Positions 14,579 through 61,574 of a DNA stretch of 64,000 nt are shown piece after piece. Source of the stretch: Candidatus Norongarragalinales archaeon (lineage in GTDB: Archaea; Micrarchaeota; Micrarchaeia; Norongarragalinales; Norongarragalinaceae); the NCBI GenBank assembly GCA_038884755.1, contig JAWABJ010000001.1, positions 128,001-192,000 of the forward strand, written 5' to 3'. The number at the start of each line of letters is the position of its first letter. Position 1 is the stretch's first letter. The translations under genes were made by a program, and so were the position numbers. Below the pieces are notes generated by a model that made no database searches, was not told where the DNA came from, and worked only from the letters and a program-made list of their open reading frames with translations.

Positions 14579-14618
14579 CGATTTTTCTTTAAAAAAAGAA
14601 AAATCGAGTAAAGAAAAA
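14579..14618 (+). repeat. hairpin + purine mirror element, copy 1 (Tyr 37/38 intron)
   Basis: CGATTTTTCTTT-AAAA-AAAGAAAAATCG-AGT-AAAGAAAAA. Confidence 0.85.
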
Positions 14619-14660
14619 CGAAATTTCACGTGTGGAAATCAGGGTGTTGCCAGTTCAAAC

Positions 14661-14699
14661 AACCTTTCTTTCGCGAAAGAAACGTTGACGAAAGAAAGG
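14661..14699 (+). repeat. element copy 2 (Tyr 59/60 intron)
   Basis: AACCTTTCTTTC-GC-GAAAGAAA-cgttgacg-AAAGAAAGG. Confidence 0.8.
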
Positions 14700-14770
14700 C
14701 CTGAAAGTCTGGCCAGCGGGACTTTCTAATTCACAAGAAATAAAAGCGTTAGAAAAAAAGTTTTTAAGCT

Positions 14771-14895
14771 GCCTTGGTAGTGTAGTGGTCTAGCATGCCA
14801 GCCTGTCACGCTGGCGACCCGGGTTCGAATTGAACAGCGCTGCGCGCTGTAACTCTTCGCTCGTCGAAGAACTCGCGAATATCCCGGCCAAGGCG
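14771..14895 (+). tRNA. tRNA-Asp(GTC) with intron at 59/60 (14830-14881)
   Basis: Acceptor GCCTTGG/CCAAGGC; CCAGC CT GTC AC GCTGG; BHB helix TTCG/CGAA. Confidence 0.92.
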
Positions 14896-14977
14896 CTTCT
14901 TTTTTTTCGTTACTTTCGCCTTAAACAAAAAATTTAAATGCCGTTTTTCGTTTTCTTCTTCAAAAGGTAGTGTTTGG

Positions 14978-15559
14978 ATGGAAGCAAAATTCAAGATTCT
15001 CGCGGTTTGGGTTGCAATCGCGCTTTTGGTTTACTTTATCGGCGTAAGCATGCCTGCGCAGCAGCAGACGGTTTTTTACGTGAGCAGCTTCGGTTTTCTC
15101 GCGCTGCTTACGCTTTGCTTGGTTTTGCTAATCCCCCCGATAGTGCGCTGGCAAAACAACTCGTTCACGCGCTTTCTTCTAGTGAATAGGCGTTGGGTTG
15201 GGCTTTCGGCGTTCTTGTTCGCTTTGACTCACATTGCGCTCGTATACCACTTTTTCTTCGCTTGGGACATTCTCAAGCCGTTGAGCCTTCCCAACAGCCT
15301 TTTCCTTAATCTCGGTGCAGTAGCATTCCTGATTCTAGCGCTAATGGCCGCGACATCCAACGACTTTTCGGTCAGCGCGCTGGGCAAGAATTGGAAGCGC
15401 TTGCACTTGTTCGTGTACTTGGCGTTCGCGCTGGTTTTGATTCACGGGTTCAACATAGGCCTGGTTTACTTTAAAGAGCAGGCAGTGCAAATCTCTATAG
15501 CCGTGCTGGTGGTTCTCATAGCGCTTTTCAAGACGGGCATCGTGAAAATCGGCAATTAA
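14978..15559 (+). CDS. ferric reductase-like transmembrane protein (MsrQ/YedZ-like)
   Basis: RRWVGL...H, ATSND, WKRLH..VY...H heme-ligand pattern. Confidence 0.8.
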   Translation: MEAKFKILAVWVAIALLVYFIGVSMPAQQQTVFYVSSFGFLALLTLCLVLLIPPIVRWQNNSFTRFLLVNRRWVGLSAFLFALTHIALVYHFFFAWDILKPLSLPNSLFLNLGAVAFLILALMAATSNDFSVSALGKNWKRLHLFVYLAFALVLIHGFNIGLVYFKEQAVQISIAVLVVLIALFKTGIVKIGN

Positions 15560-15608
15560 AGCGATATGCTATTAATCGCTTTTTGCTTTACGACTTTAGA
15601 GGGATGTC

Positions 15609-18137
15609 TTGAGGTTTCGCGCGCAAGCTGCTTTCGAGTACATGATTCTCCTTGCGGGAGTGCTTTTGATTGCGGTTATTGGTCTTGTCGTCTTCCGCAG
15701 TTTTATCTTTGCCCCCGCTTCTCAAAGTGTTGAAGCTACTAACTGCTGGGCTCGGCTTGCTAAAGATTCCAATTGTTATATCGGCGCGCAGTGGAATGCT
15801 TGCGGTCAAGTAGACCGCTTTAAATACGTTTTGCCCGACGGTAGTTTTTGCGCTTCTTTGCAAACGCCGCAAGGCTGTGTAGGCAATCTTCCTGCAAACA
15901 AGTTGTGGTGTGGGGAGGTTGGAATTCAAATTCAAGTTCAAGGCTCTCCTTCGCCGTCTGTTTTACCTTCAGCTTCGCCTAGCGTTTCTCCAAGCGCGTC
16001 TGCTTCGCCCAGCGCTTCTCCTTCGCCAAGCTCGTCTCCCTCGCCTAGCCCCTCCCCTTCTCCTGGAGGAACTTACTACGCTTCAATAACAGTCCAGCCT
16101 TCTGTCGAGCAAGGCGATTTTCCGAAAGCTGTTTTCGGCCACCAAAACAATTTCATTACGACAAAAAGTTTTAATGACAATTACGACAAGAGCAATTCTT
16201 CAAGCACGGTTTTCAAGCAATCGGTAATCAACGCCTTGCAGCCTTTGAAAATCCCGAGTTTTCGCTTTTCAAGCGGCTTGTTTTCCGACTTGTACAAGTG
16301 GGACGAGGCGATAGGCCCGTTGAGCACGAGGAGTTCTTGGAATTACTTCTGGCCTAACGGAATGAAGTTCGGGACGGACGAGATTTTGAAAGGCTATTCT
16401 GAAATCAACCCGCAAGCCCAGGTTATAGTTACCCTCAACGCCAGGCTGCAACCGACTGATTATGCAGTGAGAATGGCTGGAGACTGGATTGAGTACTTGA
16501 ACGGAATCGTTCCCGGGAAAACAACCGGATGGACGGTGAACGATTGGCTGACCATTGCCGGAAACTCGTCTTGCTATCCTTTGAACCAAACTCCTTCGGC
16601 CAAAGTATGCTATCGTCCTGGCGTAATGCCTCAAGGGTATTACGCTTGGCTTCGCTCGCAACCGGAGTACGGCAATCGCTTTGCCCCTTACGGTATAACT
16701 TACTTTGAAGTGGGCAATGAAGTGAACGACGCGTACGGCGGGTATCCCGCTTACAGCCCTGCGCAGTACGCTAGCGTTTTGAATTCTTTCGGAGCTTTGA
16801 AGCAAAATTATTCCAACATCAAGCTGGGCGGGGTTTTGGCTTTAGGCTACTCTCAATGGAACGACGCTGTAGTGCAGCAAGCCAAAGCTTGCGTTCAAAG
16901 CGGAACGCCTTGCGTTGATTTCTTGATTCCGCATTATTACGGGGGCGGGGGTAATCTCGATTACGTGAACATGGGGTGGAACATGAACGTTTCCTCTCCC
17001 GTTTTCCCTGTCTCTCAAGCCCAGCAGTTGAGGATAAGAGCGCACGGAAGCGATTGCGGCAACCCTTCCCAACAGCAAGACTGGCCTCACATGGTAGTGA
17101 AAATGGACGGCCAGCAGGTTTACGAAACATACGTCCAAACGCCAAACTACGACTTTTGGAATTCAAGCTCGTGGTATTACTACCCCCGGCAAGGAGAGCA
17201 GCCTATCAGCGTCCCTCAAGGCAATCATTCGGTTGAATTGATTTTCGACAACGACTGTTACATGCCGCAAACGGGCGCAAACCGCAATTTGTACGTAGAG
17301 CGAGTGCAGTTAATGCCTTCGGGCAGCGTCGTTGAATTGATTTCGCCTCAGGATTTTGCGAAGGAAGCGAGCGCGCAAGCGAAAGCATTCGGAGATGATT
17401 TGATTGCAATCGATGCTGTAGAGCAACAGCCTCCTTCGATAAACCTTCCTTATTTCCTGACTGAATTCAACACTGCTTTCGTTTTGCAAGACCCGTTCAG
17501 GGGGCAGAGGGTTTTGCCTTACGACGAATTGGACAAGACGATGCTCTCTTCGTTTTTTGTTGTGCCGGCATTGTCTTACTTGCTCGACCACAACGCCGGC
17601 GGGGCTTACTACTACTTGATGCAAGAACTGGTTTTCACTCTGCGGCTTAGCTTGCTTGCCTTTACAGGAGACGTTCCTGGCAGCGACCAGAATGCCGTCG
17701 GAAATGCGTATGGCAACGCGAATTACATGTTTTACAGCACGATGGCTGACGACGAGAGCTGGAAGAAAATTTCGTACAGCGTGGACACACCGAAATACGC
17801 CAGCATTTTCTACCTAACCCCGACGGAAACGGACGTTCCTCTAGTCAGGGCTTGGGCAGTCAAAACCCAGTCGGGAAAAATCAGGATAACGGTTTCCTAC
17901 GTTGGCGAAAAGCCGTTGGATTTGAATTTGAATATAGCGAATTACGCTATTTCCGGAACGGTGGATATAACGCAATTGCACAACGATGCGCTAACAGCGT
18001 TCAACAGCCACGATGGAAGCGGGAACATAGACTGGAAGATCGTCCCCCAGATTTCGCAACAGCCGGGCATAACGAACAACCACACTTTTTCCGTGCCGCC
18101 GTTTTCCATAGTGACGTTCACTTACTACCCGCAGTGA
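15609..18137 (+). CDS. class III signal peptide protein with Ser/Pro linker and clan GH-A (GH51-like) glycoside hydrolase containing an inserted CBM-like module
   Basis: RAQAAFEYMILL prepilin-type signal; YKWDEAIGP, FGTDE, YFEVGNE, IPHYY, LTEFN; DND..NRNLYVERV. Confidence 0.75.
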   Translation: MRFRAQAAFEYMILLAGVLLIAVIGLVVFRSFIFAPASQSVEATNCWARLAKDSNCYIGAQWNACGQVDRFKYVLPDGSFCASLQTPQGCVGNLPANKLWCGEVGIQIQVQGSPSPSVLPSASPSVSPSASASPSASPSPSSSPSPSPSPSPGGTYYASITVQPSVEQGDFPKAVFGHQNNFITTKSFNDNYDKSNSSSTVFKQSVINALQPLKIPSFRFSSGLFSDLYKWDEAIGPLSTRSSWNYFWPNGMKFGTDEILKGYSEINPQAQVIVTLNARLQPTDYAVRMAGDWIEYLNGIVPGKTTGWTVNDWLTIAGNSSCYPLNQTPSAKVCYRPGVMPQGYYAWLRSQPEYGNRFAPYGITYFEVGNEVNDAYGGYPAYSPAQYASVLNSFGALKQNYSNIKLGGVLALGYSQWNDAVVQQAKACVQSGTPCVDFLIPHYYGGGGNLDYVNMGWNMNVSSPVFPVSQAQQLRIRAHGSDCGNPSQQQDWPHMVVKMDGQQVYETYVQTPNYDFWNSSSWYYYPRQGEQPISVPQGNHSVELIFDNDCYMPQTGANRNLYVERVQLMPSGSVVELISPQDFAKEASAQAKAFGDDLIAIDAVEQQPPSINLPYFLTEFNTAFVLQDPFRGQRVLPYDELDKTMLSSFFVVPALSYLLDHNAGGAYYYLMQELVFTLRLSLLAFTGDVPGSDQNAVGNAYGNANYMFYSTMADDESWKKISYSVDTPKYASIFYLTPTETDVPLVRAWAVKTQSGKIRITVSYVGEKPLDLNLNIANYAISGTVDITQLHNDALTAFNSHDGSGNIDWKIVPQISQQPGITNNHTFSVPPFSIVTFTYYPQ

Positions 18138-18138
18138 A

Positions 18139-19098
18139 TTACGCTTCGTTGCACGGGAAGATTTCGGTTTCGTTGATGTACTTGTAAGCGCTGTACACCG
18201 CTAAAACCCCCTCGCCCACGCCCGTGATGGCTTGCTTGAAGCGCGTGTCTCCCACGTCTCCCGCAGCGAACACGCCCGCAACGTTGGTTTCCGAATCGCG
18301 GTTTATCACTATCTCGCCGCGGTCGTTAGTCTTGACGCCTATTTCTTTTGCTAATGCGCTCAACGGAATGTGGCCTATTTCGAGGAAAAGAGCGTCGGTA
18401 GCGAATTCCTTTTTGCCTTCGAAAGGCTTGTCCAAAACCAATTTAGTGATTTTCTTGCCGTCGCCCTTGACTTCGACGATGCGCATTTTGGTTGCGACAG
18501 TGATTTTCTTGTTTTTCTTCACCCTCTCGCCGTTTATGGGCTCGGGCTTGAGTTCTTCGCCCCGTACGAAAATCACGACGCGCTTTGCGAATTGCGTGAG
18601 CAGCAACGCTTCCTTGGCGGCGCTGTCGCCCCCGCCAACGACCGCAACAGTCTTGTCTTGGTATATTGGCCCGTCGCATAACGCGCAAGAGTGCACTCCC
18701 CTGTTCCAATACTCTTTCTCTCCGGGTACGCCCAGCTTTCTTATTTCCGTTCCTGTTGCAAACAGCACGGTTTTGGAATTGTATTTTTTTCCATCCGCAT
18801 AGACGAGCCAGCTGTTTCCGCACGCTTCGACTTTCTCGGCTTTTTCGTCTATAATCTCCACGAATTTGGAGTAGTCGAGGGCGTGCTCTTCCATTTTCTG
18901 CGCCAGTTCCAAGCCCGTAAGCCTTTTGAAGCCGGGATAGTTTTCCACCACGTCCGTAAGCGCGATGGTGCCGTATCGCGTTCCGGCGATTACGAGCGTT
19001 TTGAGGTTCAATCGCCCTGCGTACATTGCGCTGGCCAACCCTACTATCCCGCCGCCTATGATTATCAAGTCGTAAAGCTTTGCCATTGGAAATCCCAA
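18139..19098 (-). CDS. trxB: thioredoxin reductase
   Basis: GGGIVG, VENYPG, CALCDG, GGGDSA, GVFAAGD. Confidence 0.92.
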   Translation of the reverse strand: MGFPMAKLYDLIIIGGGIVGLASAMYAGRLNLKTLVIAGTRYGTIALTDVVENYPGFKRLTGLELAQKMEEHALDYSKFVEIIDEKAEKVEACGNSWLVYADGKKYNSKTVLFATGTEIRKLGVPGEKEYWNRGVHSCALCDGPIYQDKTVAVVGGGDSAAKEALLLTQFAKRVVIFVRGEELKPEPINGERVKKNKKITVATKMRIVEVKGDGKKITKLVLDKPFEGKKEFATDALFLEIGHIPLSALAKEIGVKTNDRGEIVINRDSETNVAGVFAAGDVGDTRFKQAITGVGEGVLAVYSAYKYINETEIFPCNEA

Positions 19099-19139
19099 TT
19101 TGTTTTAAAAGACAAGCGTTTTTTACTTATCGTTTAACC

Positions 19140-19763
19140 TTGAAAAATTCTGGTTTACTGGCAAGGAGGATTTTCGAGCTGAAAAAATCGCCTTTAGGCG
19201 CTAGAGTGAAGGCGAGGCTTAAGGAGCTAGAGAATAATCCCGACTGGTTTTCGGAATTGTGCTTTTGCATTTCCACCGCCAACGCGTCTTCCGAAGCCGG
19301 GTTGCGGTTTCAGGAAAAGTCGAAAGGCAAATTGCATTCGGCAAGCTCGAGGCAAATAGAAAAGTGGCTGGGCGAAAGCGGCTGTCGTTTTTACAGGAAC
19401 AAGGCGAAGTTCATAGTCCTCGCGCGAGGCTGTTTCGACCACGCTTCGCTGAAGCAGCGCGTTTGCGCTTTCAAAAGCGAGCGCGAAGCCCGCGAGTGGA
19501 TCGTGAAAAACGTGAAGGGCTTGGGGTGGAAGGAAGCCAGCCATTTCTTGCGCAATGTCGGCTTTAACGGCGTAGCCATAATCGACAGGCACGTTTTGAA
19601 CACGCTCAAGGAATACGGCGTAATCAGCGATACGAAATTGACGCCGAAAAAATACTTGCTTATCGAAAGAAAGCTTGAAGCGTTGTGCAAAAAAACCGGA
19701 TTAACGCAGGGAGAGTTGGATTTCTACTTGTGGTTTTTGAAGACCGGGAAAGTGCACAAGTAA
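19140..19763 (+). CDS. ogg: 8-oxoguanine DNA glycosylase/AP lyase (Ogg2 type)
   Basis: ELCFCISTAN, KGLGWKEASHFLRNVG, AIIDRH, C-terminal TGKVHK. Confidence 0.92.
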   Translation: MKNSGLLARRIFELKKSPLGARVKARLKELENNPDWFSELCFCISTANASSEAGLRFQEKSKGKLHSASSRQIEKWLGESGCRFYRNKAKFIVLARGCFDHASLKQRVCAFKSEREAREWIVKNVKGLGWKEASHFLRNVGFNGVAIIDRHVLNTLKEYGVISDTKLTPKKYLLIERKLEALCKKTGLTQGELDFYLWFLKTGKVHK

Positions 19764-20390
19764 TCACTTGCTTGCAACGAACCCCAAGCAACCTTCAACC
19801 CAAACTATTTTTTGAAACCCCGCTTCGGCGAGCCTTTGCTTCACGCCTTTCGGAATGTTTTTCCCGCGCGCGGCTCCCGGCGTGCCCGTATAGTGAAAAA
19901 GCCTTCCGCAGTTTTTCAAAACCCTGTAAAGCTCCCTGTAAAAAGATAGCGAGTAAAGCTCGCCCGCGTGCGACAAGCGCGGAGGGTCGTGGAGGATGAA
20001 GTCGAAAAACTCGTTTGGAAACCCTGCAACCGCTTGAAGAGCGTCTTTGTTTACGATTTCGATTTTGGGGTTCGAGAAAAGCTCTTTCGAAAAACGGTTT
20101 TGCTTCGCTATTTCCAGAACGTTCGTGTCTTTTTCGATCGTGTAAACTTTCGCAGCCCCGGCTTTCGCGCACGCGATTGCGCTATACCCCAATCCCGTGC
20201 AAACGTCCATTACCACCGCGCCGTTTTTTACGCCCAGCGCGCGTGTTTTGTCGCGCGCGTCTTTCAACGGCGTTTTGTTTTTGGTCTGGTGCATGCGCAC
20301 GCCGTCTATTTCGAGCGTGGTTTCTCCGTTCGCCAGCCGCAGCAGCTTGTAAAAACGGTTTTTGAAAAAACCCTTGCCCACCATTTCCAC
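19764..20390 (-). CDS. SAM-dependent methyltransferase
   Basis: DVCTGLGYSA, IEKD, HDPPR. Confidence 0.85.
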   Translation of the reverse strand: MEMVGKGFFKNRFYKLLRLANGETTLEIDGVRMHQTKNKTPLKDARDKTRALGVKNGAVVMDVCTGLGYSAIACAKAGAAKVYTIEKDTNVLEIAKQNRFSKELFSNPKIEIVNKDALQAVAGFPNEFFDFILHDPPRLSHAGELYSLSFYRELYRVLKNCGRLFHYTGTPGAARGKNIPKGVKQRLAEAGFQKIVWVEGCLGFVASK

Positions 20391-20494
20391 TTCGCTTTTC
20401 GCCGTAAGGGCGAATCGTTTAAAATACGCTAGTACAACCTATAATATTCCTTTTGCCTTTCATTTTGAGCTTTGCAGAAAAGGGAGTGTTTTCT

Positions 20495-20800
20495 TTGGAT
20501 GGCAAGTATTCGGCTTCGGAAAAAGTAGAGGGCGGGAAGCTCGTTTCGATAGAAGTTTCCGTGGAAAAAGGGTTGATAGCGAAAGCCAAAATTACCGGAG
20601 ACTTTTTTCTGCATCCAGAAGAGAGCATCACGGCTTTGGAGAACGCCCTCGTGGGTGTGAAAGTGCCTTTCGACTGGATTGACGCGGAGAAAAAGCTTTT
20701 GACCGTCATAACCGACAACCAGCTTAACCTCGTAGGAGTGAAATCCGGAAACGTCATTTCAGTCCTGCACAAGGCTGTTTCGCAAAAACAATCAACGTGA
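20495..20800 (+). CDS. lipoate-protein ligase accessory subunit (LplB-like)
   Basis: KVEGGKL, KITGDFFLHPEE, LENAL; adjacent to lplA; start inferred. Confidence 0.85.
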   Translation: MDGKYSASEKVEGGKLVSIEVSVEKGLIAKAKITGDFFLHPEESITALENALVGVKVPFDWIDAEKKLLTVITDNQLNLVGVKSGNVISVLHKAVSQKQST

Positions 20801-20807
20801 TTTTAGA

Positions 20808-21563
20808 ATGGATAGCGTCGAGTGGCGTGTTATTGCTTTAGAAGAGAATAGCGCTGCCAAAAACATGGCTTTGGACGAGGCGGTGAGCAACGCCGTAGCC
20901 GGGAAATTGAGCTTTCCAACCATGCGCTTTTACTCCTGGAAGCCTTCCGCGGTAAGCATAGGCTATTTCCAAAGCTTGGAAAAAGAAGTGCGTTTGCACG
21001 AGTGCGAAATGCTTGGCGTGGACATAGTGCGGAGGCGCACGGGCGGGGGTGCAGTTTACCACGACAACGCCGGGGAAATAACCTACAGCGTAATCGCTCC
21101 CGAGTCTTTCTTCCCGAGAGACATTATCGCTTCTTACAAAATGATTTGCGGGTGGATTGTAAGCGCTTTTGCCTTGCTTGGGTTGAAAGCGGAATTCAAG
21201 CCCATCAACGACATTATTCTCAACGGAAAGAAGGTTTCGGGCAACGCGCAAACCCGCCGCAACGGAATTCTCCTGCAGCACGGCACGATTTTGTACGATT
21301 TGGACGTCAAGAAAATGTTTACTGTCCTCAACGTGGGCCCGGAGAAAATCGCTGACAAGTTTATTGCAACCGTCGAAGAGCGGGTGACGAGCGTGACGAA
21401 AAACTCCGGCGTTTCGAAAGACGAGGTTTACCAAGCGCTCGTAAGCGCGTTCACTAAAGACAAAAAGTGGAGTTTCGGAAAATACTCGCCGATGGAAACC
21501 ATGGAAGCGGAAGAGCTTGCGCAAACGCGCTACTCTTCGAAAGAATGGAATTTCATGCGATAG
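20808..21563 (+). CDS. lplA: lipoate-protein ligase catalytic subunit
   Basis: NMALDEA, RRRTGGGAVYHD, KKVSGNAQ, QHGTIL. Confidence 0.92.
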   Translation: MDSVEWRVIALEENSAAKNMALDEAVSNAVAGKLSFPTMRFYSWKPSAVSIGYFQSLEKEVRLHECEMLGVDIVRRRTGGGAVYHDNAGEITYSVIAPESFFPRDIIASYKMICGWIVSAFALLGLKAEFKPINDIILNGKKVSGNAQTRRNGILLQHGTILYDLDVKKMFTVLNVGPEKIADKFIATVEERVTSVTKNSGVSKDEVYQALVSAFTKDKKWSFGKYSPMETMEAEELAQTRYSSKEWNFMR

Positions 21564-21580
21564 TATAAAGCTTGTTAATA

Positions 21581-21775
21581 ATGGAGTTTATCCGATTAGC
21601 AATAAATTTTTCTGCTCTAGGCTTATCCGTATTTTCCTCGGCCTGGATTATTATTTCAAAATCTTTATTCGAAGGTTTAGTATTTTTCTTCGTAACAGCC
21701 TTTTGTTTAATCTTTTTGCTGACGGAAGCCGAAAAATCGATACTAAGCTTCAAAGATGAGCGTGGAATTTCTTAG
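21581..21775 (+). CDS. small hydrophobic hypothetical protein (AT-rich)
   Basis: ORF fills the gap between lplA and lpd; two hydrophobic stretches. Confidence 0.4.
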   Translation: MEFIRLAINFSALGLSVFSSAWIIISKSLFEGLVFFFVTAFCLIFLLTEAEKSILSFKDERGIS

Positions 21776-21777
21776 CT

Positions 21778-25477: not shown

Positions 25478-25478
25478 C

Positions 25479-53995: not shown

Positions 53996-54328
53996 TCAAA
54001 TCCTGTAAAACTGCAAGTGCGGTATTCCTTTTATTTTCTTTACGTTCGCTTTGTTGAAGCCCAGCGCCTTTTGCGCGGCTGCGACGGACTTTTCCCCGAC
54101 AATGTTGACGTTCTCGGCGTTGCGCAGCAATTCCACCGCCTGGATTTCGGTTACGGTGTAGCCTTCGTAGAAAGAACGGTATGCCTTGAGGTCGAGCGTC
54201 TTCTCTCCTTGAGTGAAGCATTTTCCCAAAAGCTCGGTGTCGCACAACGCGAGGATTTTCGTTTCAAAGCCGCGCGCCGAGCGCAAGTGGACGCGTGCGG
54301 TGATGCTGCTTTTCAAAGCGTTTCTCAC
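53996..54328 (-). CDS. DUF424 family protein
   Basis: LALCDTELLGK, FYEG, NIVGEKSV, IKGIPH. Confidence 0.85.
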   Translation of the reverse strand: MRNALKSSITARVHLRSARGFETKILALCDTELLGKCFTQGEKTLDLKAYRSFYEGYTVTEIQAVELLRNAENVNIVGEKSVAAAQKALGFNKANVKKIKGIPHLQFYRI

Positions 54329-54684
54329 TTTTTGCCGTACTTCTTGAAGTAATCTTCCAAAAGCTCTTTTACTTGGTCTATCGTGGCGAATTCCAAGGGG
54401 TTTATTTCTTCGAGCAGGGCCTTGAGCTCGCGCAGTTCCTGCCTGGTGGCGAACTTGCTTTCGTCTATTTGCGCCCCCCTTCCTCCTCCGCCTTCCCTCG
54501 CGACTTTCTCTACCTTCTCGTTCAACGTGATGAGCGTGCGGCCCATGATTTCCTCGTTTTTTTCCATGGTTTTTAGCTTTTGGGCTATGAGGTTTATCTT
54601 GGAATCGAGGGTCTGCAGTTCGGAATTAAATGCTTCCAGAACGTCCTGTGGTTTTGCGGGCCTTTGCGGCGGCATTGTCATCAA
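54325..54684 (-). CDS. hypothetical coiled-coil protein
   Basis: Heptad-like sequence, INPLEFAT; coupled to the DUF424 gene. Confidence 0.65.
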   Translation of the reverse strand: MMTMPPQRPAKPQDVLEAFNSELQTLDSKINLIAQKLKTMEKNEEIMGRTLITLNEKVEKVAREGGGGRGAQIDESKFATRQELRELKALLEEINPLEFATIDQVKELLEDYFKKYGKK

Positions 54685-54920
54685 TCCCCTTTTTGAGCGT
54701 GTTGGTCAAACCGTTTCACGCAGCCGGCTCTTAAATAGGTTTGCCGGCGCTCCCGCAAATATAATATAGACGTCGGCTATCCACGTCTAAAAGGACTGGT
54801 TTTAAAAGCCGACTTCTATAGCTGCAGAAATGCAATGCATTCGTCCGCTTGCTGAAGCAAACGGTTTTCTGCATTTCTGCATAAAACTCTTGGGCTGGTA
54901 GAAACTTAAGGTGGGTTTTT

Positions 54921-57371
54921 TTGAAGGGGGATAAAAACGGCGTATTGCGGGCTTTCCTGCTTGAAGTCGACCACGCTCTGGTCGAAGGCGAGAGCGCCGT
55001 GCGCCTCATGCTTAAGCTGGAAGACGGGCGCACTATACGCTTGTACGACTCTTTCGAGCCTTACTTTCTCGTAAAGCCTGCTGAAAAAAGCGAACTGCAA
55101 AAGTGCAAAGAAAACTTGGAGAAAATGCGCGCCTTCGGAAAATCCGGCGAAGTCAAGGCAAAGCGGGTGGAGGAAACGCAGCTTTCCTTCAGAAACCAAC
55201 GCTTGCAGTTGCTGAAAGTTTTCGCTTTCCGCGCGTCCGACGTGCCCTTGCTGCGCAAAGATGCTGAAAAGCACGGCGTTCCGTTCGAGTTCGACATTCC
55301 CTACACGCGGCGCTATCTTTTGGACAAGCGCCTTCGCCCTAACGCCTTGCATGAAGTGGCGCACGATGGGCTGAAAGTAAAGGCAATAAGGGTGTTGGAT
55401 TTGCAAGGTGAAACTCCGAAATTCCGCATGCTTTCTCTTGATATTGAAACTTACAATCCGGACTCGATGCCCAATGCAGAGAAAGACCCTGTTTTGATGA
55501 TCGGCTTTGACGGCGAAGCGAAAGGCGTTTTTTCGTTCAAGAAAAAGTTTTCTCGCGATTTTGTTAAGGCTTTCGCTTCCGAGAAGGAAATGATAGAGGC
55601 GTACTGCGCTTTGCTCAAGGAAAAGAAAATCGATTTGGTGTGCACTTACAACGGCGACCAGTTCGACTTGCCTTACTTGGACACCCGTTCGAAGCGCATA
55701 GGCGCTTCGTTGCGGTTGGGAAGGGACAAGACTCCTGTGAAAACCAAGCGCCTTGGCTTGCGGAATGTTTCTAAAATTTCCGGGAGGATTCACTACGACG
55801 TTTTTCCCGTCGCTTCGTTCTTGAATTTCATCGGCACGATCAAAGTGGAGCGCCTTACGCTGGAGGAAGTTTATGCGACGGTTCTGGGCGGAAAAAAGCT
55901 GGGCGTAAAAAAGGAAGAAATCCACAGGATTTGGGATTCCGGCTCGCAGAAAGAACTCGATTTTCTCGCGGAGTACTGCCTTACGGATGCGATAGCGTGC
56001 ATAGCGCTCACCAAACACTTCCTGCACTTACATATGGAATTGGGAAAGCTGGTGCAAATGCCGCTGTCGGAAGTTTCGCGCGCGACCGCGTCGCAATTGG
56101 TGGAAACGTACCTGCTGGGAAAGGCTTTTGCGCGCAACGAACTCGTTCCCAACAAACCTTCTTCCACCGACATTTACTCGCGGCAGTCGCCCGTGGAAGG
56201 CGCTTTCGTGAAAACTCCCGACGCGGGGCTGTACGAGAACATTGCGGTCCTGGATTTCCGTTCGCTGTACCCCTCCATAATAATTTCGCACAACATCGAC
56301 GCTACCACTTTCAACTGCGACTGCTGCGGGAAAGACGGCTTCGTTTCGCCGCAAGGGCACCGGTTTTGCAAAAAACGCAAGGGGATAATTCCGGAAATGC
56401 TCGAGGAGATTTTGAAGGAGCGCACGCGCATACGCTCTGAAATGAAAAAGCTCGAGCCTTCTTCGAAGGAATACAGGGCTTTGGATGCCAGGCAGTGGAG
56501 TTTAAAGATTCTTGCGAACAGCACTTACGGTTATTTGCTTTACGCACGCTCGCGGTGGTACTCCCGCGAGGGCGGGGAGGCGACTACCGCGTGGGGGAGG
56601 CACTACGTGCAGGACGTGCTGAAAAAGGCAGAAGAGTTCGGGCTCAAGCCTTTGTATGCCGATACGGATTCGGCGTTCTTGCTTTATGAAGACAAGAAGA
56701 AGGTGGTGGAGTTCCAGAAGAAAGTCAACTCTTCTCTTCCCGAAGCCATGCAGTTGGAGCTAGAGGGTTTTTACCCGCGCGGGATTTTCGTTTCCAGGAA
56801 AGTGAAGGGGGCGGAGGAGAAGGGTGCGAAGAAGAAGTACGCGCTTATCGGCGAGGACGGGAAAATCAAAATCCGGGGTTTCGAGCTTGTACGCAGGGAC
56901 TGGAGCAAAATCGCGCGGGAGACGCAGCGCAAGGTTTTGGAACTGATGCTGAAGGAAGGCAGCGTGGAAAATGCTGTCGCGCTGGTGAAAAACGTCTTGC
57001 TGGAGCTTAAGGCAGGGAAGGTTCCTCTTGAAGACTGTGTGATATACACTCAGCTTCGCAAGAGCGCTTCCTCGTACGAAGTGCTTTCGCCAGAATTGGG
57101 CGCGGTGGAGCATGCCCGGAAACAAGGGATTAGGGTTCCTGCCAACGCTGTCATTGGATATGTGGTCACGAAAGAAGGGAAGGAAGCGTCGAAAAGCAAG
57201 CAGAAGATTCACTTGCAGTCTAGGCTCGTCGAACTTGCGAAAGATTACGACGCCGACTATTACATAAACCACCAGGTTTTGCCTGCGGTGCTTCGTATTC
57301 TGGGTTCGTTGGGTTTCGACGAGGATTCCTTGAAAAACAAGGGAAAGCAGACTGGCTTGGGCTCGTGGTGA
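54921..57371 (+). CDS. polB: family B DNA polymerase
   Basis: Exonuclease DIET and YNGDQFD; DFRSLYPSII, KILANSTYGY, YADTDS; no intein seen. Confidence 0.96.
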   Translation: MKGDKNGVLRAFLLEVDHALVEGESAVRLMLKLEDGRTIRLYDSFEPYFLVKPAEKSELQKCKENLEKMRAFGKSGEVKAKRVEETQLSFRNQRLQLLKVFAFRASDVPLLRKDAEKHGVPFEFDIPYTRRYLLDKRLRPNALHEVAHDGLKVKAIRVLDLQGETPKFRMLSLDIETYNPDSMPNAEKDPVLMIGFDGEAKGVFSFKKKFSRDFVKAFASEKEMIEAYCALLKEKKIDLVCTYNGDQFDLPYLDTRSKRIGASLRLGRDKTPVKTKRLGLRNVSKISGRIHYDVFPVASFLNFIGTIKVERLTLEEVYATVLGGKKLGVKKEEIHRIWDSGSQKELDFLAEYCLTDAIACIALTKHFLHLHMELGKLVQMPLSEVSRATASQLVETYLLGKAFARNELVPNKPSSTDIYSRQSPVEGAFVKTPDAGLYENIAVLDFRSLYPSIIISHNIDATTFNCDCCGKDGFVSPQGHRFCKKRKGIIPEMLEEILKERTRIRSEMKKLEPSSKEYRALDARQWSLKILANSTYGYLLYARSRWYSREGGEATTAWGRHYVQDVLKKAEEFGLKPLYADTDSAFLLYEDKKKVVEFQKKVNSSLPEAMQLELEGFYPRGIFVSRKVKGAEEKGAKKKYALIGEDGKIKIRGFELVRRDWSKIARETQRKVLELMLKEGSVENAVALVKNVLLELKAGKVPLEDCVIYTQLRKSASSYEVLSPELGAVEHARKQGIRVPANAVIGYVVTKEGKEASKSKQKIHLQSRLVELAKDYDADYYINHQVLPAVLRILGSLGFDEDSLKNKGKQTGLGSW

Positions 57372-57424
57372 AAACCGAAAACCGTTTTAAATGCGCGCGC
57401 AGTAAGATTTTCAAGGGTTGTTTG

Positions 57425-57772
57425 ATGATAATAAGCAGGCAGGTTCTTTTGGTCATCGCCTTAGCCATGCTGGCAGTTTCGCTCGTGTTCTTAACTTGGG
57501 TTTTGCAACTCCCGTCCTATGCGCCGCAGGCTGTGGGGTACGTTCCTCCTGCCGTGGGTATAGTTTCGGTGGAAGTCGTGGCTACCGCAACGCCTTCGGC
57601 TACTGCAGACCCCGCGGTCGTGGACTTTTGCTCTTCCTATCCGAAAGACTTGCAGCAAGCTTGCGTTGACGGAATAACCGCCGGAGGGGGAAGAATTCCC
57701 GAAAGCTCGCAAGACTGCGAGCTCGTTCCAGAAGAACTGCGCGAAGAGTGCATGCGGAATTTCGCGGGCTAG
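57425..57772 (+). CDS. small N-anchored exported protein
   Basis: N-terminal TM, Ala/Thr/Pro linker, four Cys. Confidence 0.6.
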   Translation: MIISRQVLLVIALAMLAVSLVFLTWVLQLPSYAPQAVGYVPPAVGIVSVEVVATATPSATADPAVVDFCSSYPKDLQQACVDGITAGGGRIPESSQDCELVPEELREECMRNFAG

Positions 57773-57837
57773 GTGCTTTCACTCGCACGACGCTTTTAAA
57801 AACAAGTTTGAATCATTTTTTACCGGGGGGTTTAACA

Positions 57838-58059
57838 ATGTTGGAAAAACATTCGGTTTTGCTCGTGGCAATTGGCTTTCTGGCTTTGTCCGTAGCCTTC
57901 TTCGTTTGGGTTGCGTTTTTGCCTCCCGCTCCTTTGGTGCCAGTGAACAACCAAATTCCTCAAGCCGGGCGGGTTGAAGCCTACGTTTTGCCTCCCAGCC
58001 CGACGCCTTGGCAGGAGGCGCCTGCCACTCCGTCTCCGCCCGAAGAGGAGCAGGCTTAA
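57838..58059 (+). CDS. small N-anchored Pro-rich protein
   Basis: TM similar to the preceding gene (VLLV.I..LA.S..F..WV). Confidence 0.55.
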   Translation: MLEKHSVLLVAIGFLALSVAFFVWVAFLPPAPLVPVNNQIPQAGRVEAYVLPPSPTPWQEAPATPSPPEEEQA

Positions 58060-58147
58060 ACTCCCGTTGTTTCCCGCGCTTTTTGATTCGATCACGTTTG
58101 TATGCATAAAATGCCTTTCAATGTTTTTTTTTTGCGTGTGAAGAAAA

Positions 58148-59032
58148 ATGGTTTCCGAGGAAGAATTGAAGAATTATTTGCAAGCGGCTAGGGTGCACGA
58201 GGCTGCGCAGGAAACAGCGCGCAGCGTGGTGAAAGAAGGAGCGGGCGTCCTGGCCGCAGCGAATGCGATTGAAAAGGAGATTGTGGATTCCGGCGGAAAG
58301 CCCGCTTTTCCCGTCAACATTTCCTTCGACAGCGAAGCGGCGCACAACACTCCTGTTGTGGGCGACAAGCGGGTGTTTGCGAGAGAAGTTGTGAAAGTTG
58401 ATATTGGCGTGCATGTCGCCGGTTGCATAATAGATTCTGGGTTTACCATGGATTTGGGCGGCGAGCAAGGAAAGCTCGTGGAAGCAAGCGAACAGGCGTT
58501 GAAAGACGCTTTGAGCGTGATGCGCGCGGGAGCAAAAGCGAAGGAAGTCGGTGCAGTAATAGAGAAAACCATCCGAAACAAGGGCTTCAAGCCCGTGGAA
58601 AACTTGTCGGGGCACTTGCTCGAGCCGTATAACCTTCATGCAGGCGTGGAAGTTCCGAATGTTGCGAAAGGCGGGGAGCATGTTTTTGAGGAAGGCGAGG
58701 TTTTTGCCGTCGAGCCTTTTGCTTCCACGGGCGCGGGGTTCGTTAGCGACGGGCCGGCTCCAGCGGAAATTTTTTCGATAATCGCGTTGAAGAACGTGCG
58801 CATGCAGCGCAGCCGCGAGTTTTTGCACAAGGTGTTCGAAGAGCGGCAGCTTTTGCCTTTCGCCAAGCGCTGGTTTGCCGAGGAAAAAATGCTGGATTTC
58901 ACGTTGCGCGATTTGGCCAGGCAAGGCGTATTGCACGACTACCCTGTTTTGGTAGACGAGGGCAAGGGCTTGGTTTCTCAGGCGGAGTCTACAGTGATTA
59001 TAGAAAAGGATTCCGTGCGCGTGCTCGTTTGA
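58148..59032 (+). CDS. map: methionine aminopeptidase type II
   Basis: PAFPVNIS, KVDIGVH, NLSGH, AVEPF. Confidence 0.93.
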   Translation: MVSEEELKNYLQAARVHEAAQETARSVVKEGAGVLAAANAIEKEIVDSGGKPAFPVNISFDSEAAHNTPVVGDKRVFAREVVKVDIGVHVAGCIIDSGFTMDLGGEQGKLVEASEQALKDALSVMRAGAKAKEVGAVIEKTIRNKGFKPVENLSGHLLEPYNLHAGVEVPNVAKGGEHVFEEGEVFAVEPFASTGAGFVSDGPAPAEIFSIIALKNVRMQRSREFLHKVFEERQLLPFAKRWFAEEKMLDFTLRDLARQGVLHDYPVLVDEGKGLVSQAESTVIIEKDSVRVLV

Positions 59033-59048
59033 GCGGTTATGCAGAACT

Positions 59049-59969
59049 TTATTTAGCGCCGAGCAACAGCGCAATCAACGCCATTCTCACTGGCACGCCG
59101 TTCGCTGCTTGGCGGAAGTATGCCGCGCGAAGATCGCCGTCAACGCTTTCTTCTATTTCCCCTATCCTGGGCAAGGGGTGCATTACTATTGATTTCGGCT
59201 TCATTTTCGACAAAAGCGAATTGTCCACGTGATACAACGACTTTAGTTTTTGGTAGTCGTCTTGCGGAGAAAGGCGTTCTTTCTGCAAGCGCGTGACGTA
59301 AAGAACGTCGAGGTTGCCTGCAATTTGGCTGACGTTTTCGCAAAACTCCACGCGCGAGCCTTTCGCTTCTGCCTTCTTAACGTATTCTCCGGGCATTTGC
59401 AGCGAAGGCGGCGCTATGCAATAGAAATTCGCGCCGAAGCGCGATGCGCCCATTATGAGCGAATGGACTGTGCGCCCGTACTTCAAATCGCCGTAAAACC
59501 CTATGTTCACGTCCAGTCTTCCCAACTCCTTCTTGATTGTGTACAAATCAAGCAGCGTTTGCGTAGGGTGTTCGCCCTTACCTTCCCCCCCGCTTATCAC
59601 GGGTATCGAGGCATATTCGGCCGCGAGGGAAAGCGAGTTCGGTTGCGAGTGCCGCATTGCTATCACGTCGGCATAGCCGTCGATAATGCGGATGGTGTCC
59701 TGCAAAGTTTCTCCTTTGGCTACAGAAGTCCCGCTGGTGTCGGAAAAGCCTATTGCGCTTCCGCCGAGGCGAAGCATGGCCGTTTGGAAAGAGAATTGCG
59801 TGCGCGTGGAAGGCTCGAAAAAAAGCGTGGCGAGAACCTTGCCTTGGCAAAGCGTGGTCGGCCTGTGCTTGGCTTCCTCCATTTCCGCGGCGGTTTCCAA
59901 AACGCTTTGCACTTCCGAGTCGGCGAAATCGTTTATTGAAATCAAGTCGCGTCCTTTCAGGGAACCCAT
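59049..59969 (-). CDS. pyrB: aspartate carbamoyltransferase catalytic subunit
   Basis: FFEPSTRT, HPTQTLLD, MHPLPR. Confidence 0.95.
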   Translation of the reverse strand: MGSLKGRDLISINDFADSEVQSVLETAAEMEEAKHRPTTLCQGKVLATLFFEPSTRTQFSFQTAMLRLGGSAIGFSDTSGTSVAKGETLQDTIRIIDGYADVIAMRHSQPNSLSLAAEYASIPVISGGEGKGEHPTQTLLDLYTIKKELGRLDVNIGFYGDLKYGRTVHSLIMGASRFGANFYCIAPPSLQMPGEYVKKAEAKGSRVEFCENVSQIAGNLDVLYVTRLQKERLSPQDDYQKLKSLYHVDNSLLSKMKPKSIVMHPLPRIGEIEESVDGDLRAAYFRQAANGVPVRMALIALLLGAK

Positions 59970-60040
59970 CTTTCCCACCAACTCCCCCACCAAGCAAATT
60001 GTTGGGTCAAGTTTTTATTTGAGTGTGTTTTTCTTCTTTC

Positions 60041-61114
60041 ATGCCCGCGGACTCCAAACAAGGCAAACCCCCCGTAGTGAAACCCGCGCCTCCTGTGCAG
60101 GAAGTCCACAAGGAAATAGTCATCCCCTTGCGTTTCAAGGTTGGAAAAGAGTTTACTTCGAAACTGCCTTTCCTCGTCGCCTTGTTCCTGTTCTTTTCCT
60201 TTTCTATGGTGATGTTCGACAAGAGCAACTTCAAAACGACGGACTTGAGCGACTTGCAGCGCGTGTATTTCAACATTCCCAAGCTCTACAGCCTTTCGTT
60301 TATTCTCTTCATGGTTCTCTTTTCCCTTGCCATGGCGCTAGGCATATACTATTCCATCGGCTTAGGGTGGATTCCTTCTTTGCTTGTCGTTCCCGCCACG
60401 TTCCTTCCAGCGGTAGTCGCTGGAATGCTGTTCTTTCCCGCCTTGACCGGCGCGTTCATGGTCTTCGCCTTGACGATTTCGTTCACTTCCCTCGTTGCAT
60501 CGTTCTGGCCCGGATACTCCCTGTCCCGCGCATGGTCGATACTGAGCCTTTCGATGGTGTTGTTCGCTTTGCTGGCGTTTTTCGTGGTTTTCTACAAGGT
60601 TGCCGAGAACAAGGACGTGCATGTCGACTTGTTCTTGAACTCGCTCGTGGCGCAGTCTCAAGGCGGGGGTTTGGGAAGCATTTCCATTCCCGCGCAAGTG
60701 ATTTCATCTTCATTGACCAAGGATGATTTCGCCTCGTTCATAACCCAGAACGACATTCGCGATCTGCTTCTTTCCAGCTATCCCAACTTCGCTTCGCTTT
60801 CCGACCAGGAAAAGGAGGCGGCGATAACGGCGTTTCACACTAAAATGGTTGATTTGGGCTTCAAGTCGTTCCAGGAGAATTCCGGCTTGATTTCGGACGC
60901 GTTGGGGCGCTCGCTGTCTTCGCGCTTCGCGAGCGGTTCCGAGGCGTTGAAACAGCAGATTTACCTTTTGCCCCAGTTTAAGCTCATTTACGACCGCTAC
61001 GCGTTCTTTTCAGGGGCGTTGGCTGCGCTGGTGGCGTCGTTCATCGCGATTTTCATCCAAATCCTCGCAGTCGCCTTTCTTTTCGCCTTGCACAAGCTCG
61101 TTCCGCAGCCTTGA
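60041..61114 (+). CDS. hypothetical multi-pass membrane protein
   Basis: Long ORF, several TM. Confidence 0.7.
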   Translation: MPADSKQGKPPVVKPAPPVQEVHKEIVIPLRFKVGKEFTSKLPFLVALFLFFSFSMVMFDKSNFKTTDLSDLQRVYFNIPKLYSLSFILFMVLFSLAMALGIYYSIGLGWIPSLLVVPATFLPAVVAGMLFFPALTGAFMVFALTISFTSLVASFWPGYSLSRAWSILSLSMVLFALLAFFVVFYKVAENKDVHVDLFLNSLVAQSQGGGLGSISIPAQVISSSLTKDDFASFITQNDIRDLLLSSYPNFASLSDQEKEAAITAFHTKMVDLGFKSFQENSGLISDALGRSLSSRFASGSEALKQQIYLLPQFKLIYDRYAFFSGALAALVASFIAIFIQILAVAFLFALHKLVPQP

Positions 61115-61160
61115 AAATCAGCTGGTTTTATTTCTTTGCGCGGGCAAACTATTCTACAGT

Positions 61161-61323
61161 GGGCCTTTAGTATAGCCTGGATAGAATAGGGGCTTCCGAA
61201 GCCTCAGACAGGGGTTCGAAGACCGCCTTTTCTTTTTAGAAAAAGAAAATGCGGTCGGCCGAAAAGAAAACGGTCGTCAGTCTCAAAGAAGCGCGGACTA
61301 GAACGGAAATCCCCTAAGGCCCG
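61161..61323 (+). tRNA. tRNA-Arg(CCG) with intron at 59/60 (61221-61309)
   Basis: Acceptor GGGCCTT/AAGGCCC; GGGGC TT CCG AA GCCTC; BHB TTCG/CGGA. Confidence 0.9.
61221..61275 (+). repeat. element copy 10 (Arg-CCG intron, extended spacer)
   Basis: GACCGCCTTTTCTTTTT-AG-AAAAAGAAAATGCGGTC-GGCCG-AAAAGAAAA-CGGTC. Confidence 0.75.
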
Positions 61324-61405
61324 CTTTGCGCTAACCGGCGAGAGCTCAAGCTCGAGCTTTCGCAAGGTAGAGAATAAGAAACCCGCAGTGAAAATTATTT
61401 ATCAC

Positions 61406-61525
61406 GGGCCCGTGTGGTAATGGACAACCGGCGGGGCTTCGGACCCCGAGTTGCGCGTTCGAAGAACCTTTCTTTGCGAAAGAAAGCTTTGCCAAAGAAA
61501 GGCAGCGAAAATCGCGCCGGGCCCG
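61406..61525 (+). tRNA. tRNA-Arg(TCG) with intron at 59/60 (61464-61511)
   Basis: Acceptor GGGCCCG/CGGGCCC; CGGGG CT TCG GA CCCCG; BHB TTCG/CGAA. Confidence 0.9.
61465..61502 (+). repeat. element copy 11 (Arg-TCG intron)
   Basis: AACCTTTCTTT-GC-GAAAGAAA-gctttgcc-AAAGAAAGG. Confidence 0.8.
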
Positions 61526-61526
61526 C

Positions 61527-61574
61527 TTAAACTTTCTTTTTTTTGCGAAAAAAGAAAGTTTAATCAAAGAAAAA
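61527..61574 (+). repeat. element copy 12 (Arg-TCG trailer)
   Basis: TTAAACTTTCT8-GCG-AAAAAAGAAAGTTTAA-TC-AAAGAAAAA. Confidence 0.8.

Follow-up and report, generated by a model that had tools for sequence, protein, structure and literature searches.

In this study, a dispersed module was characterized in a stretch of 64,000 nt from a Norongarragalinales (Micrarchaeota) genome, hereafter the window, and in related and unrelated genomes. The module spans 35–55 nt and is composed of a pyrimidine (Y) tract, a loop, the complementary purine (R) tract, a spacer and a second R-tract that mirrors the first. Compensated changes in three arms, in two base compositions and over hundreds of copies, argue strongly that a three-stranded fold has been selected, and, judged from this sequence record, the module very probably adopts a triple helix as such. 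An earlier sequence-only reading of the window had claimed covariation among the three arms; this covariation is indeed present in the sequence, as the mirror register and as covarying run lengths.

Copies in the window and geometry of the module

All 12 copies claimed by the sequence-only reading were found in the window where it had placed them. The modules (type A, Y-loop-R-8 nt-mirror R; type B, G-rich R-loop-Y-mirror Y) are:

14579..14616, + strand: type A module, 5' side of the anticodon intron of tRNA-Tyr(GTA) (gene 14537-14721)
14661/5..14698, + strand: type A module, T-loop intron of tRNA-Tyr(GTA)
25436..25477, - strand: type A module, between a dehydrogenase E1-alpha-type gene (E1_dh; its stop codon) and the RBS of an E1-beta/transketolase-type gene
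45536..45566, - strand: G-less variant (T5/A5/A5), 3' of a C/D-box-like sRNA (putative, from box motifs only)
45599..45638, - strand: type A module, within the C/D-box-like sRNA region, between an L14e-like small ORF and cbf5
45672..45702, - strand: G-less variant, immediately behind a CTGA (D-box-like) motif
46953..46997, + strand: two-G type A module (CCTTGG spacer), T-loop intron of tRNA-Ser(GGA) (gene 46832-47027)
49834..49874, + strand: type A module, immediately 3' of tRNA-Leu(GAG) (49748-49832), upstream of an L15/L18e-family gene
53841..53890, + strand: type A module, 5' side of the anticodon intron of tRNA-Gly(TCC) (gene 53804-53985)
53923..53953, + strand: degenerate type B module, 5' side of the T-loop intron of tRNA-Gly(TCC)
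61221/8..61270, + strand: long-spacer module (12 nt, G-G 20), T-loop intron of tRNA-Arg(CCG) (gene 61161-61323)
61465/8..61500, + strand: type A module, T-loop intron of tRNA-Arg(TCG) (gene 61406-61525)
61527..61574, + strand: type A module, immediately 3' of tRNA-Arg(TCG), its end 9 nt upstream of the start codon at 61584

The type B copy at 53923..53953 is absent from the earlier list. The window copies have perfect stems of 8–17 bp and mirrors of 5–12 nt; the 15-nt mirror reported at 46953 is reached if loop bases are counted, and the G-to-G distance is, as described, 14 nt in nine copies and 20 nt in the Arg-CCG copy. In the copy at 14661 a C.C mismatch of the basal stem lies opposite a third-strand G. 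The arms of the module are A/T-rich with 1–3 G, while its G-rich partner form (type B) has the order R-Y-Y and follows the same placement rule as type A.

A strict scan of the Micrarchaeota genome G000 yielded 40 matches in 142 kb of non-coding sequence and none in 782 kb of predicted CDS, in line with the earlier remark that no copy lies inside a CDS. When the non-coding segments were shuffled 100 times at the dinucleotide level, only 0.09±0.29 matches (maximum 1) were found per shuffle. Similarly, a 3' mirror of at least 7 nt accompanied 43/110 non-coding hairpins with a Y-tract of at least 7 nt and 0/26 of those in CDS. A reversed-genome control gave 13 vs 43, but it is not a clean null, as its matches include type B copies and doublets. 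The motif was found in 36/401 Micrarchaeota, 25/101 Aenigmarchaeota-phylum and 12/151 Woesearchaeota-phylum genomes. Weak single matches do arise by chance: viral contigs contained 112 pattern stretches, of which 80 were examined and 9 had a basal stem (71 did not), and a second pattern gave 1. A chance or assembly origin of the module is nonetheless virtually impossible, given the shuffle control, the many genomes with the motif, reversed-pattern controls near zero, and contigs of run X1 (possibly the window's own source) that do not differ from the window over 49805-50453 and 61186-61976.

The third tract is a mirror and not a direct repeat of the first R-tract: the mirror fitted better in 78 and the direct repeat in 21 of 143 non-redundant copies, a comparison whose P values are overstated because the copies are related to each other. 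The remaining 44 were ties, reflecting the self-symmetric core AAAGAAA. This set was obtained with innermost anchors after 13/156 rows (duplicates or evident chance matches) had been dropped, and it replaced an earlier count of 84:83 that was confounded by mis-anchored two-G tracts. The lengths of A-runs correlate in the mirror register (rho 0.56 inner, 0.62 outer) and are uncorrelated in the direct register (rho -0.25 and -0.08). Equal G counts across the arms follow from the design of the scan and no evidence was drawn from them.

The 8-nt spacer is the commonest class, but as a rule fixed throughout the genome it did not survive: it occurs in 22/42 strict genome matches, the others having 6 nt (CCTTGG type, 4), 12 nt (7) or other lengths (9), and in relatives the 8-nt class is inflated, many copies having been found by a fixed 8-nt pattern. 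The first and last bases of the spacer pair in 183/232 copies (vs 76.6±6.8 permuted), and the number of basal pairs minus the return linker equals 2 in 117/232.

Placement at RNA-processing junctions

The sequence-only reading held that Y-R-R is always the sense strand. Among 46 hand-curated copies of G000 this is true of 39, and 7 are antisense. A different rule describes placement better: in 46/46 the base of the hairpin adjoins an exon end or a stop codon and the tail is directed away from it, a polarity that is strand-symmetric, holding for the 39 sense and the 7 antisense copies alike. In an automated check with a 31-tRNA library, which misses exons outside it, median distances were 4.5 nt at the base and 27 nt at the tail, and the base was nearer in 54/67. 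Two other orientation tests were discarded, one motif-based and noisy, the other an exon-distance test whose library was contaminated by element sequence. By eye, the rows in which the tail was nearer are missed exons, tandem copies or double readings of one hairpin. Close opposite-strand pairs face inward in 14/16 cases, and the remaining 2 straddle an exon.

Stable-RNA genes adjoin 41/46 copies; 27 of the 46 lie in tRNA introns, placed in the D-loop, at the anticodon or in the T-loop, and another 3 in introns of 16S/23S, the hosts also including 16S, 23S and RNase P RNA genes. The 5 copies that adjoin stop codons and the 6 that come after tRNAs would suit a two-way U-tract terminator or a protein site (e.g. 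for an Sm-like protein), the mirror being a by-product of A-rich low complexity, as the self-symmetric core (44 ties) might also suggest. Such an origin is very unlikely, since termination would be harmful inside 16S, 23S and RNase P RNA and tRNA introns, asymmetric tracts prefer the mirror (78:21), and the G-rich form with its pyrimidine tail has the same geometry.

Between congeners with the same gene order, orthologous sites are filled in some and empty in others, so that copies are gained and lost, which supports the earlier view of a mobile mini-element. In the window, the site at 25436-25477 is empty in relative G001, the tRNA-Leu(GAG) trailer (49834) in 5/5 relatives and the tRNA-Arg(TCG) trailer (61527) in relatives L011 and L012; the T-loop intron of tRNA-Ser(GGA) (46953) carries different subtypes of the module in relatives. 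No target-site duplication was visible by eye at 3 filled/empty sites, where the relatives are too diverged for exact empty alleles. An element in the tRNA-Ala trailer is kept with compensated stems in G000, G001, G002 and G007. Type A and type B are exchanged between G000 and G002 at a shared intron position, and hence all four triplex classes occur on transcripts.

The search for a co-occurring HUH/TnpA or RT gene, proposed together with the original description, returned nothing in G000 (93% complete): Y1_Tnp (PF01797; control positive 7/14) and RVT_1 (PF00078) each had 0 matches, and no GIY-YIG was found. A 388-aa EndA of N-catalytic-partial layout and RtcB are present and, with intervening sequences in otherwise canonical tRNA/rRNA, agree with BHB-spliced archaeal introns. 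The module might also spread as RNA, its triplex steadying an excised intron that EndA/RtcB would re-ligate into other structured RNAs and reverse transcription would fix, as proposed for Thermoproteales tRNA introns. The copies in tRNA and 16S/23S introns, near-identical copies in unrelated RNAs and the two enzymes agree with this route, as do Thermoproteales intron families common to several tRNA types, cited in a 2026 preprint (10.64898/2026.10.13.758758). The transposed BHB tRNA introns of Thermoproteales (Fujishima 2010, cited in the same preprint) likewise combine related sequences in different tRNA genes and positions with a broad-specificity EndA. We consider it improbable, given the absence of RVT_1 from G000 and the non-intron copies (leaders, trailers, after stops, bacterial doublets) in both orientations. 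Unlike in Thermoproteales, the shared unit here is a triplex module smaller than the intron, found also outside introns and in both orientations.

Known families and a bacterial look-alike

The sequence-only reading had recognized no described family, and none was found: Rfam 15 contained no match to the module in the window and 24 related loci (gathering and E-value thresholds). Above threshold were only the tRNA, rRNA and tmRNA hosts and an adjacent TwoAYGGAY; RNase P and Bp1_684 matches lay below the gathering threshold. No published account of the module was found in the openly readable literature, and the main text of the COMPASS atlas, where the module could be an unnamed cluster, contains neither 'triple' nor 'triplex'. 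Acido-Lenti-1 and Flavo-1 were rejected, their alignments in the supplements of PMC2864571 being unlike the module.

The triplex layout proposed earlier holds, but 'H-DNA' was imprecise for it: a hairpin and its mirror on one strand constitute an intrastrand triplex, class II/IV in the terms of Holder 2015 (PMC4666352). The archaeal module has the class II order (Y-R-mirror R) with stems of at least 6–7 nt. The closest known system is BoxC/PIT/TM(ECO), likewise a dispersed non-coding repeat with Y-R-mirror-R on one strand, a pyrimidine-motif class on the other, and a copy number that varies among relatives (PMC4666352, which also cites Hoyne/Maher 2000). BoxC/TM is G/C-rich and reported to lack a correlation with gene orientation (PMC4666352), whereas the archaeal module is A/T-rich with one to three G, strictly polar at RNA-processing junctions, and has its own fixed basal-stem/linker geometry and a G-rich class III/I partner. 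REP/BIME/REPIN and MITE-type elements share many extragenic copies, inverted doublets and presence/absence among relatives; in contrast, no Y1 transposase was found in the archaeal genome, and the module conserves structure over sequence and targets RNA-gene junctions.

On its Y-Y-R strand the module resembles the U.A-U / C+.G-C layout of the telomerase pseudoknot and the ENE/MALAT1 triple helix (PMC7583470, PMC13541005). Read on Y-Y-R, the bacterial module described below is a complete H-type pseudoknot whose loop 1 is U-rich. In leader copies Y-Y-R stands just 5' of tRNA or tmRNA, as the MALAT1 triple helix does before its tRNA-like RNA. The module differs from both in being a dispersed repeat for which no RT partner was found, and Y-Y-R is not the transcribed strand in 39/46 copies, which sets the module apart from ENE/MALAT1-type elements, where U-rich strands and an A-rich tract are transcribed together at the 3' end of an RNA.

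Burkholderiaceae carry a module with this geometry at the ends of inward-facing repeat doublets, with about 460–500 bp between modules; archaeal doublets span 80–183 nt overall, and most archaeal copies are solo despite some inward doublets. Paraburkholderia caribensis, a cultured environmental bacterium, has 47 pattern matches on one chromid (23+/24- in inward doublets; reversed control 0). The bacterial module is a covarying pseudoknot (3.65 vs 2.27±0.18 over 23 loop types). ORF clustering at 121 bacterial loci made no recurrent enzyme evident, and a 1.9-kb doublet in W01 was rejected as carrier of a dedicated gene, its content being a putative transposase-like insertion of IS size, as read from opposite-frame text. 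An E. coli genome collection gave no blastn match to the look-alike, and in a phage collection the best 10 of 161 matches concerned tRNA-Asp exons only. The likeness of the archaeal and bacterial modules is one of geometry, and low-complexity arms could converge.

The folding strand and possible explanations

Where isolated mismatches interrupt the basal stem, the Y-R-R strand shows C.C (84), A.C (33), C.T (28) and G.T (10), which read on Y-Y-R as G.G, T.G and G.A, and in the bacterial TCAC/GTAA variant (25/79 copies) pairing is kept on Y-Y-R alone. The bias is reversed in the spacer mini-hairpin (G.T 28 vs A.C 9 on Y-R-R), which counts against the Y-Y-R reading, and also where the helix of the bacterial pseudoknot ends (22 terminal G.T pairs, 4 types). 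The mismatch pattern points partly to the strand opposite to the sense Y-R-R. For the sense strand to fold in this way as RNA, a triplex of the purine motif would be required, and published reports either deny or dispute that this motif forms in RNA (PMC4666352; PMC7583470).

The explanation that we tentatively favour, as plausible if somewhat short of probable, is a mobile repeat that takes up an intrastrand triplex in single-stranded DNA and is tolerated through its removal by splicing or end-trimming. The repeat would be non-autonomous and selected for a one-strand hairpin with a third strand alongside; on the relevant strand the third strand would lie 5' of the hairpin. For the A/T-rich form this would be Y-Y-R (T.A-T, C+.G-C), with a telomerase-type pseudoknot geometry in which a 2–3-nt linker spans 4–5 bp, and for the G-rich form R-R-Y (G.G-C, A.A-T). 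This strand is the template strand in most copies, so the fold would most likely form in single-stranded DNA. It may serve as an end signal, the unit being copied beside the edge of a conserved gene by some enzyme or by gene conversion among copies. Copies would persist where an epsilon2-type splicing endonuclease with RtcB, or RNase P/Z trimming, clears the unit from mature RNA, or just behind stop codons. A process in DNA could yield the biases to stable-RNA genes (41/46) and to sense (39/46) only through selection or coupling to transcription.

Polarity that tracks processing boundaries would also be expected of an RNA module that protects or processes ends, shielding co-transcribed mRNAs or excised introns from exonucleases. 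After a cut by EndA, RNase Z or RNase P, Y-R-R would cap 5' ends with its A-rich tail in the minor groove, as pseudoknot loop 3 does, and Y-Y-R would cap 3' ends as a U.A-U helix, as in MALAT1. In G000, 6/6 type A tRNA trailers are followed by a co-directional gene or rRNA, the tRNA-Ala trailer element keeps compensated stems, the G.U pairs of the spacer hairpin are on Y-R-R, and in a CPR genome (G410) Y-Y-R lies between tmRNA and an ORF that we take, from its translation, to be SmpB-like. We regard such a cap as unlikely: orthologous sites are empty in congeners of the same gene order, stem G.U pairs occupy 2/624 positions (14-nt class), the loop-to-tail pseudoknot signal of archaeal copies is not significant (P=0.08), and minor-groove helices are mostly unstable on their own (PMC7583470). 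Moreover, the gene after the type B copy at C1:494220 is convergent, and no co-directional gene precedes the leader copy at C1:210496. Of the 46 G000 copies, only 7 have Y-Y-R as the sense strand, 2 of them tRNA leaders. One RNA run on the window covered 3/30 bins, with short unrelated pieces.

To our knowledge, few natural intrastrand triplexes show selection in their sequence record, and the bacterial BoxC/PIT repeats lack an agreed function. It is conceivable, although rather doubtful, that the modules of DPANN, CPR and Proteobacteria form one cross-domain triple-helix/pseudoknot class, a structure-defined terminal signal of a non-autonomous mobile element whose insertion at archaeal RNA-processing junctions creates tRNA/rRNA introns, part of it possibly co-opted as a purine-strand RNA triplex capping processed ends. 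If true, this would provide a concrete route for tRNA/rRNA intron gain. How archaeal tRNA introns originate is called open in the 2026 preprint (10.64898/2026.10.13.758758), and a module with gains and losses among congeners at the junctions of tRNA and rRNA genes offers a direct candidate for their arrival. The look-alike of Paraburkholderia caribensis makes the folding strand, expression and mobility approachable without DPANN culture.

Repeat copies and their mirrored third tract

The window lies at C1:128001-192000 of G000, an archaeal genome of 926,659 bases that is 93% complete, and its proteins have their closest relatives in Norongarragalinales/Micrarchaeota. All 12 window copies of the element were found as described in the sequence-only reading. 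A strict scan (perfect hairpin with a pyrimidine tract, Y, of at least 7, plus a purine mirror of at least 7 with an inner G) gave 40 matches in 142 kb of non-coding DNA of G000 and none in 782 kb of CDS predicted with a purpose-made ORF caller, in agreement with the absence from coding sequences noticed in the window; 100 composition-matched dinucleotide shuffles yielded 0.09 ± 0.29 strict matches each. The third tract had also been described as a mirror of the second, and among 143 non-redundant copies (G000 and relatives) the mirror fitted better in 78, a direct repeat in 21 and both equally in 44, with A-run lengths of the tracts covarying in mirror register only. Polymerase slippage and template switching produce direct or inverted repeats rather than mirrors, so that selection on a three-strand contact would be the economical reading. 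Judged from its sequence, the element is a real, selected, dispersed, three-arm repeat with a putative triplex fold.

What had been read as an 8-nt spacer is rather a stem bottom plus a return linker: of 232 copies, 117 have two more basal pairs than linker bases, and 183 have a first spacer base that pairs with the last one (permuted 76.6 ± 6.8, maximum 104). The fixed 8-nt length itself held in 22 of 42 strict G000 matches and not in the remaining 20. The G-to-G distance is 14 nt in 83/156 anchored copies, a set partly gathered by a fixed 8-nt search, with further classes at 16-25. The basal stem contains a conserved mismatch slot, mostly C.C and often opposite a third-strand G. Three layouts are present on transcripts (R, purine tract):

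Type A: Y-loop-R-spacer-R
Type B: G-rich R-loop-Y-linker-Y (GGAGAAA / TTTCTCC / CCTCTT)
Type C: long-spacer A form placed antisense, the RNA reading Y-Y-R

Type B was found in 6/41 genomes, with 5 exact copies in G000 and about 5 further degenerate ones recognised by eye. Inside introns, the purine tail or the whole module is in places tandemly expanded, as in the tRNA-Leu(TAA) intron with five R tracts (G000:C1:567959-568090) and in arrays of the relative G007 (L093, L099, L101); this suggests slippage on top of insertion.

The element works like the BoxC/PIT/TM intrastrand-triplex repeats as portrayed in parts of PMC4666352, but departs from their composition and orientation features set out there, and therefore it was not classed with them. 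Identity as an ENE was rejected. No Rfam family matches the module and no published description was found in the literature searched, in which it is apparently an undescribed variant of intrastrand-triplex repeats.

Placement, polarity and mobility

Only 2-3 window tRNAs were detected by ARAGORN and Rfam because most tRNA genes are interrupted; host RNA genes were assigned by hand reading. From 59 relaxed G000 matches, 46 were kept; the 13 removed lay in CDS, looked like chance, were degenerate or read a hairpin already counted a second time.

Hosts of the curated element copies in G000
tRNA introns, sense: 22/46
tRNA introns, antisense: 5/46
tRNA trailers: 6/46
tRNA leaders, antisense: 2/46
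16S/23S introns: 3/46 (by eye from conserved motifs)
pre-rRNA spacer: 1/46 (by eye from conserved motifs)
RNase P RNA: 1/46 (by eye from conserved motifs)
C/D-like sRNA: 1/46 (by eye from conserved motifs)
abutting a stop codon: 5/46

The claim that Y-R-R is always the sense strand applies to 39 of these copies and breaks down in 7. In all 46, the tail is directed away from the exon end or stop codon that the hairpin base contacts. In line with this, an automated multi-genome check gave median distances of 4.5 nt (base side) versus 27 nt (tail side), the base being nearer in 54/67. Fourteen of 16 opposite-strand neighbour pairs face inward and the other 2 straddle an exon. The rule holds for type B too: of 7 copies examined in relatives, 6 have a recognisable host, and all 6 conform. 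In the relative G002, type B occupies the intron position of tRNA-Glu(TTC) and of tRNA-Arg(CCG) that holds type A in G000. The five after-stop copies lie at C1:153436 (window 25436), 556639, 558439, 116637 and 701654; the stop codon itself is within the basal stem in 3/5, which raises the possibility of target choice through base pairing.

Filled and empty orthologous sites, a comparison proposed earlier, both occur among relatives. The tRNA-Leu(GAG) trailer site (window 49834) is empty in 5/5 relatives, the E1-alpha/E1-beta gap (window 25436) in the single close orthologue found, and the tRNA-Arg(TCG) trailer site (window 61527) in L011 and L012. Which subtype occupies the T-loop intron of tRNA-Ser differs across G000, G001, G003, G004 and G015. 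No target duplication was visible by eye at the three filled/empty sites, where relatives are too diverged for exact empty alleles. The suggested HUH/TnpA-like or RT partner gene did not emerge, as PF00078 (RVT_1), PF01797 (Y1_Tnp) and PF01541 (GIY-YIG) had no match in the 93%-complete G000. This genome encodes RtcB, two tyrosine recombinases and a 388-aa EndA with an N-catalytic-partial layout, which we infer to be epsilon2-like; epsilon2-type EndA cleaves non-canonical introns, according to a portion of PMC5829648.

Just downstream of tRNA-Leu(TAA), a 1032-aa ORF (L460, G000:C1:568215-571313) fuses a tyrosine-recombinase domain, a zinc ribbon and a TraG/HerA-like ATPase; a second recombinase lies at G000:C1:432611, downstream of tRNA-Leu(CAA). 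The C/D-box-like sRNA region with three modules (window 45530-45730, minus strand) is flanked by an L14e-like ORF and cbf5, which are adjacent without it in G003 and separated by other sequence in G004 and G007. The six small contigs (G000:C4-C9) have no tRNA or strict match, and their GC content and density of coding sequence deviate, so that some of them may not belong to the bin.

Range and a bacterial look-alike

The strict core pattern occurs in 16/41 relatives and 36/401 genomes of the phylum, and a slightly wider one in 25/101 and 12/151 genomes of the phyla of an Aenigmarchaeota and a Woesearchaeota genome, respectively; reversed-pattern controls were close to zero, and chance accounts for some of the single matches. 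With a loose pattern there were 47 matches in genome G406, 7 in one CPR genome (one copy as Y-Y-R immediately before tmRNA), 1 poor match in a Methanoperedens genome and none in one Bathyarchaeia genome.

Viral and prophage matches pointed to a module in bacteria that shares the G-G geometry (14 or 12 nt) and is repeated on Burkholderiaceae chromids in doublets that face inward, most of them with a spacing of 460-500 bp (23 plus- and 24 minus-strand copies on the chromid W01; control 0). Its hairpin loop pairs with the bases following the tail. Covariation of the paired bases (3.65 versus 2.27 ± 0.18, one copy per 23 loop types; 0/5000 permutations) identifies an H-type pseudoknot, whose Y-Y-R strand is laid out like the telomerase pseudoknot triple helix. 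Homology of the archaeal and bacterial modules is plausible.

In a tandemly repeated unit of a Pseudoalteromonas chromid (L278, 1100-2330), the bacterial module, in Y-Y-R orientation, immediately follows the 3' end of matches to Rfam TwoAYGGAY, an arrangement which suggests that a larger repeat includes TwoAYGGAY. Sub-threshold Bp1_684 matches at outer doublet ends on Paraburkholderia and Burkholderia chromids (L308/L313) indicate that the "sRNA" of that name may be part of the repeat itself.

Folding strand, competing readings and a second hairpin motif

Evidence on the folding strand is split. Isolated basal-stem mismatches on Y-R-R (C.C 84, A.C 33, C.T 28, G.T 10) become G.G, T.G and G.A on Y-Y-R, on which alone one bacterial variant (25/79 copies) pairs; these features, with canonical chemistry and geometry, speak for Y-Y-R. 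The spacer hairpin on Y-R-R (G.T 28 versus A.C 9), the G.T at bacterial pseudoknot ends and the transcription of most archaeal copies as Y-R-R speak for that strand. Purine-motif triplexes are reported, in parts of PMC4666352, not to form in RNA, and sections of PMC7583470 present them as disputed and lone minor-groove helices as usually unstable. Types A and B, of one topology but opposite chemistry, can stand in for each other, and polarity is strand-symmetric, which favours a three-stranded structure that would form in single-stranded DNA. This DNA fold is preferred tentatively, at somewhat below even chances, over RNA end protection, which is rather unlikely, over intron spread at the RNA level, which seems improbable, and over a terminator or protein site, which is very improbable.

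Another hairpin, of CTTCGCTC type, is common to T-loop introns that lack the triplex module (window 14771-14895 in tRNA-Asp; G000:C1:425116, minus strand; C1:652370, plus strand), possibly a second mobile module family; similar motifs occur inside a Ralstonia repeat unit (L311). An identical hairpin of ~30 nt is shared by the tRNA-Val(TAC) leader and, reversed, the tRNA-Arg(GCG) T-loop intron (G000:C2:90700-90755 and C2:66430-66560).
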